A stretch of DNA of 64,000 nt from the NCBI GenBank assembly GCA_027923505.1, contig BROI01000015.1, forward strand, positions 372,001 to 436,000, given 5' to 3'. Within the stretch, counting starts at the first letter, position 1, and every line of letters begins with the position of its first letter. The DNA is from Mayamaea pseudoterrestris. Its lineage: Eukaryota. Both the position numbers and the translations under genes were made by a program. Below the pieces are notes generated by a model. That model had not been told where the DNA came from. It worked only from the letters and a program-made list of their open reading frames with translations, and made no database searches. Shown here piece by piece: positions 1-9,920 of the stretch.

Positions 1-62
1 ACTTTGATGATGTCGTACCACGAATCCAAAGTTATCGTAGCGGTACTTACAGTGCTGGACAG

Positions 63-364
63 AGTCGAAACAATTAAGGTTCAGGCCCTGCCAGTGTCCG
101 TTTGTTTCGGTTGATCCTCATGGCTGGATATCTGTTAATATCCAGTATCTGTGAATACTCAAGTTACTTAAGCTACAGAAGCAAGCCGACGTTACCAACA
201 CGTCGGCAACGGTCCCCTTAAAGTAGCGGTAACAACTAAATCAAATCATTCTATTGCAAAGTACACGCAATCGTCTCGTTCCCCTTCTTCTTACCAAGCT
301 AGTAGACTGATCATCTCCTACTTGACCAAGTCCTCAAGGTAACTCGACACAAGTTGCATTGATA
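63..364 (+). repeat. 5' LTR (302 bp)
   Basis: Identical to 6818-7119 on manual base-by-base comparison; starts AGTCG and ends GATA. Confidence 0.95.
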
Positions 365-377
365 GGTTATTCGTCCC
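365..377 (+). other. Putative primer-binding site (GGTTATTCGTCCC)
   Basis: Lies immediately 3' of the 5' LTR. Starts GGTTAT like the GGTTATGGGCCC half-tRNAiMet PBS of copia-type elements, but the match is only partial. Confidence 0.45.
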
Positions 378-433
378 AATCACGCGCCCTACTGCCGCTA
401 CAAAATCTCGTTCTAGACCCCGAGAAAAGCATC

Positions 434-2088
434 ATGTCTACCGACAACAACGACACGGAGCAGTTCTTCGACACTCCTCCTCCTAAACCCCGAGCTGGCT
501 CTCCAACATCTGCTGCAGCTGATCTTGCCACGCTCATTACAGCTCTCAAGTCGATTCCATCCGACCAGCTTAAGATCCTCCTCCAAGCCGTCCAACCGAC
601 CGACGCGTCGTCGCCTGGAGACACTCCTCCCAAGGATGAAACCTCTATTCCAACGGCCAACGAATATGTTTCCCTCATTGGTGGTTACCTCGATGCCGAG
701 CGCAAGATTGCCTTCTGTGGAGGCAAACCGAATCTTGACTACACGCTCCCCCAAGTGCTCGAGGACGACCCGCTCGCCAAGCACATCCCCAAGACGCCAG
801 CTTGCCACCGCGATCTCACCATGAAGCGTGCTGCTCAAGACTACGCCATTCGCATTGCTTTCAAGCCTTCAATTGGCAAGTTAGAGAAGGCCATGCCGAT
901 GTTCGCGTGGGGCGAGCTCATCCTTCGTGCGCTTGAAACGACTGGCGGCGATTCTGTCACTTACTCGCTGTCGAGAGACAACAAGACGCGCGTTAGTGTT
1001 TGTACCAACTTTGATGTACTCACGCTCGCTCACGTTATCGCTCAAAGCAAGAAGGATGTCGCCAATTGGCGCCCGATGGACCACGAGAACAGCTCGATGG
1101 CGATCGAGTTCGTGTTGAATCACTTGAGCACGGCGATCCAACAGATTGTCGAGCCTCGCCGAAAGGAAGATGACACCTTCGCTATCTTCTTTATGCGCAT
1201 CGCTCAAGCCAACGCTGATCTCTCATACGAGGCTGCCGACAAGATGAAGGCCGAGCTCCGTGCTTACAAATTGACCGACGTTTCCTTCCAAGACGTTCAC
1301 CATTTTGGTGCCAAGTTCCTCAACACTGAGCGCCAGCTTCACAATGGCAAGCGCTGGGACCATTCCCTTGGATTAATCTTCATTAGAGAGCTCTCCAAAT
1401 GTCCATCGGAAGTTATGCGTGTTACGTTCATTGGCATTGGAGAACGGTACGACACTGCTCTTCGTGAAATCAATCCCCTCTCCTACGACGAGCAGCGCTC
1501 TCGCATGTTCAGTTTAAACGTTCATATCTCCCAGTTAGTTGAATGCGCTGACAATCTTTACGCTCAAATCAAAGCAGTTGATGGAGGATGGCCTCCGCTT
1601 GTCAATATTGTCGACAAGAAAGCGCCCGATATCAACTCGTTGACAAAACTCAGCCACGCCGAGCAAGCTGCTCTCATCTCAAGCGGCCAAGTTGACATCA
1701 ACAATCTCGTTCAATCCAAGGTCAAAGAGCTTCGCACAAAGGACAAGAAGCAGTTGGAAGCTTACAAGAAGCGCTTCGCCAAGCAGTCGCCAAATGGCGA
1801 CACCAACCCGCGCAATCCTTCTGGCGATTCCACCAAGACCCCGACGAAAAGCGAGCTGAACGCCCTTTACCAGCATGGCGCACAAAGCCGCCTGCTGCCA
1901 AACAATAAAGGCAAAAAGTCAAGTACAAGTTCCAATGGTGCGACAAGTGCTCCAAGTGGGTGTGGAATCATACGTCTGCAACTCACAAATCCAAGTCGCC
2001 CGAGGCAAACAACTTCATTCTTGCCGACTCCTCCAACGTGTTTGAAGAATTCACCAACTACGCTCCCTTCGCTGACCGTCAGGAATGA
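434..2088 (+). CDS. gag: Copia gag (frameshifted near 1870-1920)
   Basis: Long ORF from ATG 434. After small indels the frame reads PAWRTKPP, then KFQWCDKCSKWVWNHTSATH (Cx2Cx6Hx4H knuckle), then an acidic tail ending ...DRQE-TGA at 2086-2088. Confidence 0.8.
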
Positions 2089-5000
2089 CTTGAATGCGGA
2101 AGGACGCCGCCTCTTCTTCTCTTTGTTCAAGCGTTTTGTTTCAAGACTGCCTTCGCCCGGTTCATCCTCAAGCCCGTTGCCGCCATGCTCCTCTTGGCTG
2201 CTCTGAGTATGCTTCCTACCGTCCTACCGGCCGTCCTTGAATCAGTTTGCGCTTGCGCATTGAGTGGACTTGCGCTCAATCAATGGTTCTGGTCTTCAAC
2301 TCTCACCAACGCCTCTACGTTTGCTTGCAATGCGCTCAATCTTTCGCGCGCCATCTGGTCTTCAACTCTCACCAACGCCTCTACGTTTGCTTGCAATGCG
2401 CTCAATCTTTCGCGCGCCACGCTCGCTCTTCCAACGTTTCTCCGCTGGTTTTGGTTTGAGTTACTCACGACAACGCTCGAGAGGGAGATGATGTTGCTGT
2501 GGATGTCAGTTATCCTCGAAGCATTAGCTCTTTCCTGTCACCTTTCTCCGAGTCGCCCGCAACCAACTAGAGACAAGCTCCGTCAAAAACAAAAACACTA
2601 CGACAAACGCAAGAACTCTACTGACGAACGTCAACTTTCCGTCCAATCAAAACGCCGCATTCGCCAACAGAAACGATTGAAAAGAACGCTCCGTGTCCCA
2701 CTCATCTATAGCTATCACCGTTCCTATCCAACAAGATTGCGCAGCGACGGCATCTATCGTCAAAGAGTCCATTGCCCGCGTTTCGAAACCCTTCCAGAAG
2801 CCAAGGCTGTGCCCATTGAAGTCATTAAGGGTACAAGGGCTTGTTTACTACTCCCGTCGAGTCCAAGGAATGCCGATGGATCGACAATCCCATCTCCCAA
2901 TTTAATTCCCTCATCGAGTACCCTGGCCTCATGGATTACCTTGGCGCGCTCGCTCCTCTCGAGTTCAACAACATTACCTTCCAAGCAGACTCTTCAGTCA
3001 ATGACTTTGCATTCTCTCCAAGCAATGCTGCTCGATCCTCCACGTTCGAAATCATTCACGACAGCGGCGCGTCTGCAACCGTCGCCAATCACTTGGATGA
3101 CTTCGTCCCTGGTACTTACCGCAAGAGCACAAAGAAGATCATTGCAAAGGGCCTCGCATCTGGTTTACAAGTGGTCGGCCATGGTATAATCGACTGGACG
3201 CTTGATGGCAACGATGGCAAGCCTCTACGAGTCCGTTGTCAAGCTCTCTACATTCCCGACAGTCCGCGCAAGTTACTGTGCCCTCAACAGTACATGCGAT
3301 ACCACAAGCTACACGATCGCGAGGCGAATTTAACGTTTGCTATTAATGGAGAAGGATTCTGGTACTTTGATCTACACAAACAAGGATGCCCGTCCCTTCT
3401 TCACGGCTCGCTCGATCCAGTCACCAACCTACCGACTTCTACAGCCATCCAGATTGCAACTCCAGATCCGACTTCATGCTGAGTTTAATGCATGTGTAAC
3501 AGACGCTCGAAACGCCAACTTGTCGCCCGCTCAAAAGCTCCTTCTTCAATGGCATTTCAAGTGCGGCCACGCCAGCTTCCGCAGCATGCAAAACCTCCTT
3601 CGCTCTGGATGACTGGCAACGAGCGATGGGGCAAACTCCAAAACGCTGCGCTGCGTGCCGTCGAGATACCCAAATGTGTGGCTCGCCGGAGTTCGAAAAC
3701 ATCGACCAACGGCCGCCTCGAAACCTCGAGCCGACGGATCGCTCAAACAAGGAAAGCTTCGCCCAGGACAACAAGTCTCCGTTGATCATTACATCTGCAG
3801 TCAAAAGGGACGCCTCTATACGTCTCGCGGCAAAACGTCGACCGACTCAATGTTTAGCATTGGCGGCCTCTTTGTCGACCACGCGAGTGGATACGTCTTC
3901 GTCGACCACCAAGTTGTTATGAACACGCATGAAACCCTTCGCTCCAAGTGGAACTTTGAAAAGTTTGCAAGAGACTGCGGCGTTTCAATTGAAAGCTACT
4001 TGTCTGATAACGCTGCTTGTTTCACCAGTCACGAGTACACTGAGCATCTTTCCAAGTTCAAACAGACGACCATCTTTGCAGGCGTCGGCGCGCATCATCA
4101 AAATGGCATTGCAGAACGAAACATTCAAACCATTATGAACATGGCAAGGACAATGCTTATCCACGCTAATATGCATTGGACTGACGTTGATGATATGTTG
4201 CTCTGGCCGATGGCTGTCGACTACGCAGTTTACATCTTCAATCGAATGCCAAACGTCGCCACTGGCCAAGCTCCCATTGATATCTTCACTGGTACCATCT
4301 GGGCAAGTCACAAGTTCCATCATCTCCACGTTTTTGGATCGCCCGCCTACGTTCTTGATCCTCGCATGCAAGACGGCAAGTCCATTCCTCGTTGGAAAGT
4401 GCGCTCGCGCCGCGGGATCTTCGTCGGCTTCTCCAGCAAGCACTCGGCTACAGTTCCTCTTGTCCTCAACTTGAATACATTAACCATCAGTCCTCAGTAT
4501 CACGTTACGCATGACGATTGGTTTACTACAGTTGACGCTCTTCCTGATTCGCCTCCAAATTTTACGGACGACAGATGGACGAGTCTCTTTGCGACAAGCA
4601 AGTACATCTATCCGTTTGACAACGATGACCCCCTTCCTGCTCTCAATCCTGAGTGGGAGGACAACTTTGATGCCTCAGCTGCTCGCCAAGATGCTATACA
4701 TGCAGCACAGACTCCTTCTACTGCACCAGTTTTACCTGCTCCCGCCGCTCCGCCAGCGGTTGCTCCAGTTCCTTCCAATGATTCTCCACCCATCACAGGC
4801 GCTCCGCCTCCGAATCAGAGGGAGACAAGGCCTCCTGAAATTCATTCGCCTCAAGAAACTACAGAACCACAGCTTCAGAGGGAGCAGAGGGAGCATTTAG
4901 ATCACATTGATGGCAATCCCTTGCGCTCGTCCGCACCAACACTGCGTGTCGCAGCCGATGTCACAGTCAATCCCAGTCCACCAAACGCATCAAACGAGTC

Positions 5001-6759
5001 CACGATCCCGACAACAGCTCCCACGCTCGCACAACAACAACAACAAGCAAGTGATCCTCCTTTACGTCGCTCTGCACGTTTACGCGATCGTCCTCCTGAG
5101 CCAGTTATTACTCAAGCTCAGCGTCTTCGGCATGCTCGCGACGAAATGATTGAAACCAATATGCTGTTAGCAGAGCATGTGCACGCGGAATACCCTTACT
5201 CAATCGGTTTAACGCAAGTGCTCCTCGCCTCGACGAACGATCCCGACACCCTTCGCTACGATGAAGCAATGCGCGCTGATGACTCTGAAGAGTTCAGGAA
5301 AGCTGCATGTATAGAGATCAAGTCGCTCGAAGACCATGGAACATGAGTTGTCACCAAGGACCGAGGTTCCTCAAGAGCAAAGCCATACCCGGCACGTGGA
5401 CCTTTCGCCGCAAGCGAACGCCCAGCGAACAAGGCTCGCTTCTGCGTTCGAGGAGACCTACAGAAGGACGTATTCGAAACGTTTGCCCCAGTCGTTCAAT
5501 GGAGCACCGTTCGTGTCCTCATGGTATTCGCCTTGACGTTTGGATACAAAACCAAGTGCATTGATTTCACCAACGCTTTCGTTCAGGCAGATCTAAAGGA
5601 CCCAATCTACATTCAATTCTCTCGCGGCTTTCAACACAAAGACGGTCATCAATCAAGCGATTACTGTTTAAAGTTGCTCAAGTCGTGCTACGGAACGAAG
5701 ATCGCTCCAAAGCTCTTCTACGAACACTTACGCGACCGACTCGTCGAACTCGGATTTACTCAAAGCTTCTTCGATCCCTGTCTCTTCTACCGCAGTGGAC
5801 AAATCATCGCCTGTTACGTTGACGACTGCATCTGCGTCGCCCGTACCGACAAGGAGCTACAGACTATCATCGACGACCTTCGCTCCAAGTTCACGCTCAC
5901 CGAAGAAGGCGATCTAAGCCAGTATCTAGGCATTGATATCAAGCGCTCTGGAAAGTCTTTCACGCTCACTCAAACGGGCTTGATCGATAGCATCATTCAA
6001 GCTACTGGAATGGAGGCTGCTAACGGAGTCTTCACGCCCGCCAACGACACGCTCGGCAAGAACGCCGACTTACCTGATCATCAAGAGAGCTGGAGCTACA
6101 ACTCGCTAATCGGCAAGCTTCTTTATCTTGCTGGTAATTCGCGCCCTGATATTGCCTTCGCTGTTAATCAATGCGCAAGATTCAATCACTGTCCTAAAAA
6201 GCCACACTTTGACGCCGTTAAACGCATCGTCCGCTATCTCATCAAGACTCGCGAACAAGGACTCATCATGACGCGCCCGAGAAACCTTACGTTGGCCTGT
6301 TCGTTGATGCCGACTTTGCTTGGTTTATATGGAAAGGAAGAAGAACGGTCGAGCGCGTCCGTACCTTATTACTCGGTGGCCGCTGCCCGTCTTTTGGCAA
6401 AGCAAGCTACAAACCGAAATTGCTCTATCTACAATGGAATCCGAGTACGTTGCCCTCTCCTTCAAGCCAAGTCCGTCCACGTCATTCAAGGAAGCGAAAA
6501 GTGAAGCAGACGCGATCGACAGTGCGGACGTCCTGGTAACGAAGATAACGCAGGCTGCCTTGCGCTCGCCAATGCCCCTCATCTTACGCCTCGCTCTCGC
6601 CATTACGCTACTAAGTATCACCACTTTAAGCACCACGTAAAGCAGGGCACGATCAAAGTCGTTAAGATTGACACCAAGGAGCAACGAGCGGATATCTTTA
6701 CAAAGGCGCTGCCCCAAGTCACATTCGAGCACCTCCGCCGTCTCCTTATGGGATGGTAA
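2089..6759 (+). pseudogene. pol: Copia pol (hydrophobic leader, protease, integrase, RT, RNase H), broken by indels and stops in this sequence
   Basis: Motifs IIHDSGAS (~3050), LLQWHFKCGH (~3540), the integrase core (3770-4500), KARFCVRGDLQ (~5430), YVDD (~5815), WQSKLQTEIALSTMESEY and ADIFTKAL...LMGW-TAA (6759) fall in several frames. In-frame TGAs at 3610 and 5344. Confidence 0.9.
2288..2419 (+). repeat. Perfect 2 x 66-bp tandem duplication inside the retrotransposon
   Basis: The unit TCTGGTCTTC...CGCGCGCCA starts at 2288 and again at 2354; it encodes WSSTLTNASTFACNALNLSRA twice in frame. Confidence 0.95.
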
Positions 6760-6808
6760 AGTTGCTCATCTTCTCTGTTATTTGTCTCTATGTCTATAAC
6801 AACGATCC

Positions 6809-6817
6809 AAGAGGGAG
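6809..6817 (+). other. Polypurine tract
   Basis: AAGAGGGAG directly abuts the 3' LTR. Confidence 0.8.
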
Positions 6818-7119
6818 AGTCGAAACAATTAAGGTTCAGGCCCTGCCAGTGTCCGTTTGTTTCGGTTGATCCTCATGGCTGGATATCTGTTAATATCCAG
6901 TATCTGTGAATACTCAAGTTACTTAAGCTACAGAAGCAAGCCGACGTTACCAACACGTCGGCAACGGTCCCCTTAAAGTAGCGGTAACAACTAAATCAAA
7001 TCATTCTATTGCAAAGTACACGCAATCGTCTCGTTCCCCTTCTTCTTACCAAGCTAGTAGACTGATCATCTCCTACTTGACCAAGTCCTCAAGGTAACTC
7101 GACACAAGTTGCATTGATA
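6818..7119 (+). repeat. 3' LTR (302 bp)
   Basis: Identical to 63-364 and followed by the target duplication GACAG. Confidence 0.95.
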
Positions 7120-7369
7120 GACAGTTACGTCGTAAGCTACTCGTGTCTATGGTGTTTTCAACTCCATTAGCTCCACAGGCAGACAAGAAAGCATAGAAAA
7201 CGACCATTCGGCTTCAGCAGTCTAGTAGAACTTTGTTTATGATGTATCTAAATATTTGTTTGTTAGTATGGCATACAGTATGCAATTTCTCGCGAAGACA
7301 ATCACGGGGTGCAGCCATCCGGCGACGTAGACAATCTCTAGCGGACAAGTTTGGCAACTGTTATACTGG

Positions 7370-9634
7370 TCATGTGTCGTCCAAATGATCCTTGCACAGA
7401 TAGTGAAGAAGCTTGGTTACCACCATCTTGACCGGGTTACCAATCATATGAAGACCATCGTCCTGTGTGGCAACCTCGTAGCTAAATGCTGCCGAAACAT
7501 CGAACCCGTTGATCATCTTCCAACCTTTCGGTACGAGTATCTCCTGCGTAAGCTTCGACAGCAAATCGGCATTTTCTACCGTCACGTAAGGCTCGCGCTC
7601 GCTTGTATAGTAGTAGCTCGTTAAGAAAAATCTTATTTCATCCGCACCAGCGACTGCACTCTTTGCCAACGCGTCACGCCATTGACTTGTATTCCAATGC
7701 CAAAGCACATGGGGCAGTCTCAGAGTGCTAAAGGCGACTTTCAATGGTTGGGTGTTGTTTGTGTCCACTAATTGTTCACCGTCGTTGGCGGAGGGTGGAA
7801 CGTAGAGTTTGATGTGCCGAAATCTCTGGTTCATGAATTGCTGCACAAAGCCTGAAATAGAAGCACCTTCCATAACATACGATCCTATGCGTCGATTATT
7901 TACGCACTGCTGCAACTGAGTGTCCGTCAGCTCCAAATAGTTGCAATTGTAGTTCTCCCACTTGCTGTAGTGCTCCGCTTCCTTTTTGATGGAGGACTGC
8001 CATGGAAAGTGGTGCTCCCTATGCGCGCAGTATTCGGTGCAGCGTAATCCAATAACTGTTATATTATCGCGAAACCAACAGGTTGGGTGATCAGGGTCCG
8101 ACTCCATGACATCAAACATGGTGATGTTTGGATCAGATTGCATAACATTTGGGCATGTCGCCGCATCAGGCCATGGGTAGCGTACCCATCGACCAGCGTC
8201 AGTCATGGTCGTGAATCGATCGCTTGGATATTCGTCGGTTAAGGAACAGAGACGCTTTGGTTCGTCGTTGCTTGGCTTGACGGCAGCTGCCAGCGGAGCC
8301 AGTGTGAACCGATTCGATGAATACACTGGAACGGAGTCGTCTAGCGATGCATCGAGACAAGGATACGTTTGTGTATGCCAGAAGCTCCATCCGCAGCCCA
8401 TGAAATAGGATGTTTCCACATCATGTCGCTTGCCATGAAACACATTTAGTTTTCCTCGATAGTAGTCAACCCCAGTCATGTTGCGAATGCTTCTAAAATG
8501 AGGATGTACTTTGGACTCATTGGCAGGTATGTGTACGTTTTCTGCCAAGCGTCGGCGCAAGCCTTGCGAAAGAGCTTTATGATCGGAACTATCGACTGGC
8601 TCGTCGAAAAACAGCTCACAACCTCCCCATCGTGGCAACAGGCCAGACGTAAGACTTAATGGCGGCGACACCCAGTACTTGCAAAGCGGTTCGCGGGAGC
8701 ATATTTCGCAGCAACTTTCCACCGGCGTATAGAATTTGAAACCAAGAAATCCAGTGCTGTAGGGAAAATCGTCCATTGGAGTGTCTAGGCTTTGCTGCGC
8801 CCCGCATAGATCCTTCACGGCGTCACCCTGCGGCGGTGCCTTGCCATTGTATAGCAGCAATCTCGCGTCGACTTCATATTCTCCAGCTACTAGCAACAAG
8901 AAGGGAAACTCCAAGTGACAGGATTGACCAGGAAAGATTTGCGAAGCGACCGCCACTGCCGACCCAGCAAAGATTTCCGGTCCATTGACGCGCACATAAA
9001 TGGTCCACTTTGCGCAGTCAGCTTGCGTCGTTTCAACTGTATTGAAAATGCGAACAACATTCCAACCAGGCGTATATGGTTGATCAGGCAATATAGCGGC
9101 AAAAATGACGGCATGTCGAGCGTATGCGTATCCCATGCCGCGCATGCGCCACGTATCTCTCACGTTGGACTCATCGAGCGCCCTGCCCTGCATTGTGTAG
9201 GTACCGGGAGTACTTTGGCGTGTGGCATTGCGGTAGGCATCTTGCCGTTGTATGAACAGTTCTCTCGCTTGTACTGTTGCTTGTCGAATGAGGCTGGGAT
9301 TGATCTTGACGGAAGGTGAAGTCGCCGAGGAAAATATTCTGCCAGTGCGTTCTTTGACGGCCCCAATCGGTGAATTTGCAGTGATACTCCAGTTGTTTGT
9401 CATCAAAAAGAGTAATGCAAGCAAAACCATTGTAGCTGCCATAAAATATCGATGTTTGGAAGGCGGCGGCAGAGAAAGAACTGCCTTTGCACCAGTTGGC
9501 ATGGAAGACGAAGGCGTTTGCAAGACTGGCATTTTCAGCAAAGTGTTGTTCGATAGGCAAGAGACTGCACTTCTCCTCGTGTTGTACACGAGTGAGTATA
9601 TACGATGGAAAGGTGTGTAATGATGCGATGGCAA
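7370..9634 (-). CDS. Type II membrane protein, NXPE/PC-esterase-like (Ig-like domain, Cys-rich insert, SGNH-like C-terminus); true start may be a downstream Met
   Basis: 754-aa ORF with an N-terminal TM (MAATMVLLALLFLM), a WENYNC..LQQCV..MEGAS block resembling the WxxxxC..C..GDS motif, and a C-terminal DDGLH (DxxH). Confidence 0.6.
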   Translation of the reverse strand: MPSHHYTPFHRIYSLVYNTRRSAVSCLSNNTLLKMPVLQTPSSSMPTGAKAVLSLPPPSKHRYFMAATMVLLALLFLMTNNWSITANSPIGAVKERTGRIFSSATSPSVKINPSLIRQATVQARELFIQRQDAYRNATRQSTPGTYTMQGRALDESNVRDTWRMRGMGYAYARHAVIFAAILPDQPYTPGWNVVRIFNTVETTQADCAKWTIYVRVNGPEIFAGSAVAVASQIFPGQSCHLEFPFLLLVAGEYEVDARLLLYNGKAPPQGDAVKDLCGAQQSLDTPMDDFPYSTGFLGFKFYTPVESCCEICSREPLCKYWVSPPLSLTSGLLPRWGGCELFFDEPVDSSDHKALSQGLRRRLAENVHIPANESKVHPHFRSIRNMTGVDYYRGKLNVFHGKRHDVETSYFMGCGWSFWHTQTYPCLDASLDDSVPVYSSNRFTLAPLAAAVKPSNDEPKRLCSLTDEYPSDRFTTMTDAGRWVRYPWPDAATCPNVMQSDPNITMFDVMESDPDHPTCWFRDNITVIGLRCTEYCAHREHHFPWQSSIKKEAEHYSKWENYNCNYLELTDTQLQQCVNNRRIGSYVMEGASISGFVQQFMNQRFRHIKLYVPPSANDGEQLVDTNNTQPLKVAFSTLRLPHVLWHWNTSQWRDALAKSAVAGADEIRFFLTSYYYTSEREPYVTVENADLLSKLTQEILVPKGWKMINGFDVSAAFSYEVATQDDGLHMIGNPVKMVVTKLLHYLCKDHLDDT

Positions 9635-9920
9635 GCAGAGAGGCGTGTTTGGTTAAATTGAACATTGAATCGATTGTTTGGGTTGGCTTCGATCAGTCAT
9701 TGGAACATGCAAAAATCAGTCATCGTCACCTAAAAAACGTCATTATATCGCACCGCCACTGAAACGTCCGCGATGCGACAGCCACACGATGCCACGAGGA
9801 ACAGCCGCGTCGATGAACGAACGCATCATCCGGCTTTTCGCTCTGGCAGCCTATCATACAATCGCATCTAAATCTAATCTTCGTTGTCTTTCCTTCTTCT
9901 CACGTCTACTCTCTATCAAA

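Follow-up and report, generated by a model that had tools for sequence, protein, structure and literature searches.

A conserved in-frame UGA codon followed by a hydrophobic module at the gag–pol junction of a diatom Ty1/Copia element and its relatives suggests stop-codon readthrough

Copia retrotransposons are usually taught as elements that make Gag and Pol from a single open reading frame (ORF), by splicing or by frameshifting. A Ty1/Copia element in the genome of the diatom Mayamaea pseudoterrestris raises the question of how Pol is made when gag ends in an in-frame UGA codon, and of what the hydrophobic region encoded directly behind that codon contributes. The element occupies positions 61–7120 of a 64-kb stretch of DNA (contig BROI01000015.1, positions 372,001–436,000; hereafter the window, in whose coordinates positions are given) and consists of two direct long terminal repeats (LTRs) flanking a coding region. 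We find that the shared reading frame across the junction, the stop codon and the hydrophobic module behind it are conserved. Programmed readthrough of the UGA probably makes Gag–Pol, with the hydrophobic module a conserved and translated part of Pol, as judged by comparison of sister copies and related elements. We infer that readthrough is how elements of this stop type bypass the codon and that the module makes contact with membranes.

At the junction itself, the frame that carries the knuckle-like motif of Gag (1930–1986, frame 1) ends in ...FADRQE, followed by TGA at 2086–2088 and CTT, as an earlier note on this sequence had described. The same frame stays open past the stop, forming a stop-to-stop ORF at 2089–3189 (366 codons, first ATG at 2185); because frames 2 and 3 hold 4 and 3 stops, respectively, within 2089–2560, this openness is beyond chance. 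The roughly 150 hydrophobic residues and the very basic stretch reported to follow are likewise present, at 2113–2544 and 2551–2694. Kyte–Doolittle hydropathy over 19 residues peaks at 1.75, 2.17, 1.93 and 1.79 in the hydrophobic part, the mean hydropathy of which is 0.80 in the linker frame versus 0.07 and −0.11 in the other frames, and 26 of the last 96 linker residues are basic (17 Arg and 9 Lys). Two further claims of the earlier note held in part. The protease frame (frame 3) is indeed offset by one base from the linker, where a frameshift near 2840 had been proposed, but the offset is due to a deletion private to this copy, as sister copies have an A after 2826. Similarly, CUUGAA just behind the stop does pair with UUCAAG in the minimum free energy (MFE) fold, as suggested, but the stability of the resulting hairpin is at chance level (z score −0.15 for 62 nucleotides (nt), a stability matched by 81 of 200 shuffled sequences; +1.21 for 120 nt). 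The body of gag (434–1909) lies in frame 2 of this copy, unlike the knuckle in frame 1.

The state of the family can be read from sister copies, as contigs of four sequencing runs mapped to positions 1–7400. In runs X1 and X3 the depth over the element is roughly 5–8 times that of the flank, and their contigs therefore represent collapsed sister copies; in runs X6 and X7 the depth is 3–5×, and the lack of cover over 742–2717 at 80% likeness is uninformative. No second copy of the element at 61–7120 was found elsewhere in the 64-kb window. The sister contigs repair the lesions of the window copy one after another. A loose end in X1 and X3 carries 29 letters before 1920, equivalent to 10 extra bases, by which gag frame 2 joins the knuckle frame; an A behind 2826, present in all covering contigs (X1, X3 and X6), joins the linker to the protease frame; and a net gain of 2 within 3449–3471 joins protease to integrase. 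The contigs also lack a 66-nt duplication in the linker (2337 joined to 2408 with 4 letters between, net −66) and show several indel differences within 6275–6384. With these private lesions repaired, the family frame therefore runs through gag, knuckle, linker, protease, integrase and reverse transcriptase with the TGA as its sole interruption.

The TGA in turn is a feature of the family and not a private mutation of the window copy. The stretch 1920–2295 is covered by one contig, with 6 differences and 0 gaps in X1 and 9 differences in X3; the differences listed fall at 2019, 2032, 2056, 2077 and 2178, and none at 2086–2088. Four sister gag proteins with the source name Mayamaea pseudoterrestris (P0122–P0125) are 86–96% identical to the window gag, and three of them read ...NNKDEVKEVGKYKFQWC across the window lesion near 1915. 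P0125, which comes from another contig, shares the changes listed at 2056 and 2077 and ends ...FTDYAPFADSQE (...FADSQE), at the same last residue as the window gag. A more distant gag, P0126 (36% identity), ends around 27 residues past its own knuckle. As a separate observation, the gene models of P0122 and P0123 depart from gag at different places, within the knuckle or beyond it, and both end in an identical run of 12 residues. No sequence encoding this tail was found in the window; the tail is probably specific to the gene models and may be a prediction artefact or a splice to an exon outside the window copy.

Beyond the family, an integrase query found 318 homologous proteins. Among the 120 matches listed there are two size classes, of roughly 1,250–1,420 amino acids (pol only) and 2,000–2,150 amino acids (gag–pol fused), and the only named relative among them is P0094, a predicted protein of Phaeodactylum tricornutum with 50% identity over 66% of the integrase. 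An alignment of 24 proteins from this search (A1), used as a query against metagenomes, yielded 74 loci; a metagenome search with the protease ORF alone found no relative. The gag–pol junction could be read in 28 of the 74 loci. In ten of these (nine distinct, as L002 and L003 are identical here) gag and pol abut in one frame with a single stop between them, which is always TGA; in four the pol ORF overlaps gag in the −1 frame; twelve are one ORF and two (L021 and L054) are unclear. Three of the four −1 overlaps contain an in-phase slippery heptamer a few codons before the gag stop (GGGAAAC, GGGTTTT and GGGTTTC, at L016:2310–2316, L023:5502–5508 and L074:3281–3287), whereas the overlap in L051 contains none. 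These heptamers show that the clade uses translational recoding at the gag–pol junction.

The gags of these elements are only 20–30% identical. Homologues of the window gag are encoded upstream of pol in L001, L003 and L025 and also in the −1 elements L016 and L023; the upstream ORF of L033 matched none. In an unrooted tree of integrase and protease, obtained by a quick search over 26 rows of which four are long-branched (L003, L021 and L054 were left out), 11 of the 12 single-ORF elements fall into one well-supported clade with the window element as its sister (Shimodaira–Hasegawa-like approximate likelihood ratio test (SH-aLRT) value of 90). Elements of the TGA type are scattered among the other branches, with five changes needed, at least three of them forced by starred branches, and the stop has therefore been kept across deep divergence. 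One locus stands apart: L033:407–8425 is an AT-rich outlier that combines a 1,250-codon upstream ORF, an in-frame TGA and pol, with neither a post-stop structure nor a hydrophobic peak.

A UGA followed by C is a leaky stop context. We compared the window element with the nine distinct stop-type loci, treating related elements as independent, which makes the following p-values optimistic. All 10 have TGA as the stop, where a share of 0.505 would be expected from the stop triplets of these elements (p ~0.001); C occupies position +4 in six (p = 0.018) and CT positions +4 and +5 in five (p = 2 × 10−4). In seven of the ten, the 60 nt behind the stop belong to the element's most stable 6.2% of windows (Fisher p = 8 × 10−7), and the structures predicted in the relatives are simple hairpins, 3–10 nt downstream of the UGA. 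An Rfam search gave no match and a tRNA scan no tRNA.

The hydrophobic segment between gag and protease, an extra membrane-targeting module in the view of the earlier note, is a conserved feature at this place across the clade. In relatives, DPSAW is followed by at least two hydrophobic segments, the last of which starts AP-LLW, then by an Arg/Lys-rich stretch, GSIR.HG.HR.YP..LRS.G.Y, a variable basic region, ALQAP..FR and the protease. To count the module we used our own motif patterns and thresholds, by which 101 of the 120 listed proteins match a protease pattern and 46 of the 101 also an upstream knuckle. Among these 46 fused relatives, 43 have at least one segment with a Kyte–Doolittle value of 1.6 or more between knuckle and protease and 30 have at least two; with 0.48 such segments per 100 amino acids, the module exceeds both gag (0.015) and the part from the protease onwards (0.065). 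Such a segment is also carried by 21 of 34 proteins that lack a knuckle match and have at least 100 residues before the protease, by none of the 21 with fewer than 100 residues there, and by seven of the ten stop-type elements (not L013, L033 or L055).

Alignment A3 (32 rows) shows the constant residues of the module: the Trp of DPSAW, the Pro and Trp of AP-LLW and the Tyr, Pro and Leu of YPxxLR are invariant, as are C8, C11, W14, H18 and H23 of the knuckle. The window linker has LP-TFLRW under AP-LLW and HRSYPTRLRS under HR.YP..LRS, and it is through these motif anchors in alignments that its homology to the module of the clade is shown; the window linker alone (246 amino acids) found no homologue among longer proteins, among 1.84 billion representatives or in the ESM Atlas. 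A profile search of the module against the PDB gave no match at E ≤ 1, and no Pfam family matched the module of the window element or of its relatives; VTT_dom (E = 0.046) and NnrS (E = 0.0057, in 1 of 24) were discarded as single weak matches at chance level. AlphaFold models predict helices over the hydrophobic and basic parts of the window linker (mean predicted local distance difference test score (pLDDT) 72.7, predicted template modelling score (pTM) 0.27) and over the same parts of the L004 linker (pLDDT 74.3, pTM 0.29). As for the knuckle, the form F.WC..C..W...H....H, for which there is no Pfam model, is a second knuckle downstream of the usual CCHC knuckle in fused relatives; in the window family it appears to be the sole knuckle.

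Taken together, these comparisons point to the following mechanism. Intact members would encode gag, the CCHH knuckle, a single UGA, a linker of roughly 225 residues, protease, integrase and reverse transcriptase/RNase H in one frame, the linker being made up of predicted hydrophobic helices, a basic helix and the HRxYPxxLRS motif. The full-length RNA would be translated from the gag ATG; most ribosomes would terminate at UGA-C and release Gag, and a few per cent would decode the UGA as sense and continue through the module and Pol, giving Gag–Pol. In stop-type and frameshift-type elements alike the module lies directly behind the recoding site and therefore only Gag–Pol would carry it, at the start of the Pol part, and Gag would not. 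Its most likely role would be membrane insertion or association, or self-association of Gag–Pol before the protease removes the module.

Pol could instead be a separate product that starts at ATG 2185 or at a non-AUG codon, translated either from a subgenomic or internally initiated RNA or after re-initiation, with the TGA a plain terminator of gag. There is a precedent in Tca2 (pCal), a Ty1/Copia element of Candida albicans that has gag, UGA and pol in one frame and a potential RNA structure behind the stop: its junction sequence alone is reported to give no readthrough in S. cerevisiae, and the junction contained a promoter that drove a downstream reporter (PMC2194720). In the window copy, ATG 2185 stands in a good context (GCCGCCATGC, with G at −3) that would permit separate initiation, and many pol-only ORFs among the database matches listed begin at or in the hydrophobic segment. 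Nevertheless, we consider a separate Pol unlikely. At all ten stop-type junctions pol follows gag directly and in frame across one stop, whereas independent ORFs would be expected to share a frame in about one-third of cases; the first ATG behind the stop lies anywhere from 4 to ~63 codons downstream and is not conserved; and the codons ahead of it are conserved as protein, both in the pair L001 and L002 (non-synonymous and synonymous rates dN 0.40 and dS 0.82 over 46 aligned post-stop codons before any ATG) and in an L-x-G-R motif that follows the stop in five of the ten. In those relatives whose junction holds an in-phase slippery heptamer, moreover, Pol is made as a fusion to Gag. A small in-frame intron, spliced out of a minority of transcripts together with the stop, is a much less probable route. 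Splicing is reported to regulate gag and pol in Drosophila copia (PMC2194720), and the window holds GT at 2078–2079 followed by a pyrimidine-rich tract up to AG at 2130–2131, so placed that removal of the 54 nt would take out the TGA and keep the frame. The 5′ site (C/GTCAGG) is poor, however, in-frame GT..AG pairs are common by chance (0–37 per junction), and a consensus-like 5′ site spanning the stop occurs in only one of ten elements (L037). Least credible of all is that both the TGA and the open frame behind it arose by accident as a pseudogene copy decayed and mean nothing for the family. The window copy has truly decayed, with its lesion near 1915, the −1 at 2826, TGAs at 3610 and 5344, indels and a duplication, but the TGA shows no listed difference in sister contigs that repair the other lesions, P0125 terminates at the identical position, P0126 ends at a similar distance past its knuckle, and ten related loci share the arrangement, which already largely refutes this explanation.

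Readthrough into a translated module thus remains the reading that we favour, and several observations weigh against it in addition to Tca2 and the context of ATG 2185. C is absent from position +4 in four of the ten stop-type junctions. Stable post-stop structure is missing from three, the window element, L033 and L052, and the window fold reaches only the 21st percentile among the 60-nt windows of its element. That the TGA of the sister contigs is unchanged is read off a table of differences, in which nothing is listed at 2086–2088. Constraint on the linker among sisters is weak, with 5 synonymous and 6 non-synonymous changes among the 11 differences listed. In P0094, L013, L033 and L055 the module is reduced or missing, and the pTM values of both linker models (0.27–0.29) mean no compact fold.

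Some of these points bear on what the module does rather than on whether it is made. The stretch may be translated and yet be no membrane anchor, serving as a helical spacer or self-association region, for instance in protease dimerization, with its hydrophobicity merely tolerated; we regard this as a serious possibility, though below an even chance. Apart from a few anchor residues the sequence is poorly conserved (mean column identity 14%), dN/dS is ~0.5 between L001 and L002, no membrane protein family matches, and the models show long helices without a compact bundle. On the biological hydrophobicity scale, applied in a position-independent form to 19-residue segments, the best segments of the window linker score a marginal +1.6 and +2.3 kcal/mol, and only 23 of the 46 fused relatives fall below 0.5 kcal/mol. 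In gag and in Pol, however, just one of the 46 in each case passes the same threshold, and in these relatives hydrophobic segments are ~30 times as dense in the module as in gag and 7 times as dense as in the rest of Pol. Arg/Lys clusters also stand regularly behind the segments, resembling the positive-inside pattern that is typical of membrane proteins. A bolder extension, which the comparisons permit us to put forward only tentatively and which we think somewhat doubtful, is that in a large and mostly marine Copia clade a multi-helix membrane module behind a recoding site (UGA readthrough or −1 frameshift) would anchor only the rare Gag–Pol while Gag stays soluble, such that a membrane would be the place where particle assembly or activation of the protease is seeded.

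The remaining features of the element (Table 1) are those of a multi-copy, CoDi-like diatom Ty1/Copia retrotransposon. Pfam matches run in the order Pol_BBD, gag_pre-integrs, SH3_retrovirus and RVT_2, as in an element with protease, integrase, reverse transcriptase and RNase H in succession. The two LTRs, each of 305 nt, are 100% identical, and the LTR ends are without TG..CA. A putative 4–5-bp target-site duplication, (G)ACAG, is found at 58/59–62 and 7120/7121–7124; it shares 2 nt with the start of the LTR match, and the boundary is ambiguous by 2 nt. Contigs of runs X1 and X3 join 62 to ~7126, with 14 unplaced letters at the joint, and probably represent the empty site, which would make the insertion young and polymorphic. 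Judged by its sequence, the window copy is unable to express Pol. Beyond the junction it is damaged by TGAs at 3610 and 5344 and by indels at 3449–3471 and 6275–6384, and its integrase is broken by the TGA at 3610–3612 and a divergent patch at 3628–3724. Presumably, this structurally dead copy was inserted recently, having been mobilized in trans. Sister contigs replace 3628–3724 and also 923–1029 by unrelated letters (113 for 95 and 106 for 105), which suggests mosaic or recombinant family members rather than simple point decay. Outside the element, a 760-codon open frame on the minus strand (7370–9652), starting ~250 nt past the 3′ LTR, is presumably a neighbouring host gene.

Table 1 Features of the Ty1/Copia element in window coordinates
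Feature	Position	Strand	Evidence or remark
5′ LTR	61–365	+	Matches 6816–7120
gag body, frame 2, ATG 434	434–1909	+	ORF 326–2206; gag homology
Copy-specific lesion	1910–1920		Sisters have 10 more bases, joining gag frame to knuckle frame
CCHH knuckle-like motif F.WC..C..W...H....H, frame 1	1930–1986	+	FQWCDKCSKWVWNHTSATH; alignment A3
In-frame TGA ending gag, CTT next; candidate readthrough site	2086–2088	+	Sister contigs, P0125, related loci
Post-stop hairpin (stem of the earlier note plus inner stem)	2089–2131	+	In MFE fold; z −0.15, 21st percentile
Hydrophobic part of linker, 4–5 Kyte–Doolittle peaks	2113–2544	+	Aligns to the AP-LLW segment of the clade
Perfect 66-nt tandem duplication, 22 codons, in frame	2288–2419	+	Private to window copy; sisters skip it
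Very basic stretch, predicted helical	2551–2694	+	Composition; AlphaFold model
HRSYPTRLRSDGIY, clade motif H-R-x-Y-P-x-x-L-R-S	2716–2757	+	Y217, P218 and L221 invariant in A3
Copy-specific 1-nt deletion splitting linker frame from protease frame	2826–2827		A inserted in sisters
Protease region, frame 3; DSGAS 3060–3074	2829–3482	+	Pfam Pol_BBD, E = 2.7 × 10−4, below cutoff; motif
Integrase: HHCC finger, core, SH3-like domain	3334–5343	+	gag_pre-integrs 3334–3609; SH3_retrovirus in 3613–5343; 318 homologues
Copy-specific in-frame TGA (sisters TGG)	5344–5346	+	5346 A>G in all covering contigs
Reverse transcriptase, RVT_2; YVDD 5815–5826	5347–6501	+	Pfam 117.8 bits versus cutoff 31.6
RNase H region, two frames, split by indels 6275–6384	6308–6756	+	ORFs, sister contigs
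3′ LTR; purine run AAGAGGGAG before it	6816–7120	+	Matches 61–365

For annotation, these results mean that a stop between gag and pol is by itself no reason to score such elements as dead, and that the region behind the stop is to be treated as coding. Recoding of this type is already known; what appears to be new is its conservation in a clade and the module behind the stop. To our knowledge, Tca2 is the only gag-UGA-pol Copia case that has been studied. The in-frame UGA kept at one junction, beside relatives with −1 slippery sites and with fused ORFs, offers a natural comparative series for Gag:Gag–Pol ratios in stramenopile hosts. If the module is a membrane anchor, the site at which these particles are assumed to assemble would change, and such an anchor could be a possible step towards envelope-independent cell-to-cell transfer, for example at gamete fusion. 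We know of no membrane-nucleated assembly by an anchored Gag–Pol in the Pseudoviridae.

Several known systems resemble parts of this arrangement. In the literature searched, as far as the sources were available and including PMC2194720, PMC2806351 and PMC2774666 (Llorens et al. 2009), we came across no description of a hydrophobic or membrane-spanning stretch separating gag from the protease. The CoDi elements are diatom Copia elements, and the LTRs of the window element likewise lack TG..CA; in contrast to our analysis, the available part of their description does not consider recoding at the stop and does not cover any hydrophobic region (PMC2806351). Tca2 shares with the window element its superfamily and the one-frame arrangement of gag and pol around a single UGA. 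It differs in having a purine spacer and a pseudoknot, and no hydrophobic module at its junction is reported in the available text, whereas the window clade has comparative support in its UGA-C/CU context and in 3′ hairpins in seven of ten elements (PMC2194720). For a putative membrane module in an LTR retrotransposon without env, the nearest parallel lies in the sORF2/FAST-like transmembrane proteins of the MDG1 group of Ty3/Gypsy, which are small membrane proteins (bioRxiv 10.1101/2025.03.14.642691). By its description, sORF2 is a separate small ORF of insect Gypsy-type elements for which a role in cell-to-cell transfer was shown, whereas the window module is internal to a Copia Gag–Pol. Murine leukaemia virus (MLV) sets its Gag:Gag–Pol ratio by infrequent readthrough of a stop codon that divides gag from pol within one frame (PMC2194720). 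MLV, however, uses UAG with a spacer and a pseudoknot, and the window clade has UGA, often with C or CU next, and simple hairpins. With its stop context and downstream hairpins, the arrangement of the window clade appears to be closer to the readthrough type of alphaviruses, in which UGA-C is followed by a 3′ stem-loop, than to that of MLV.

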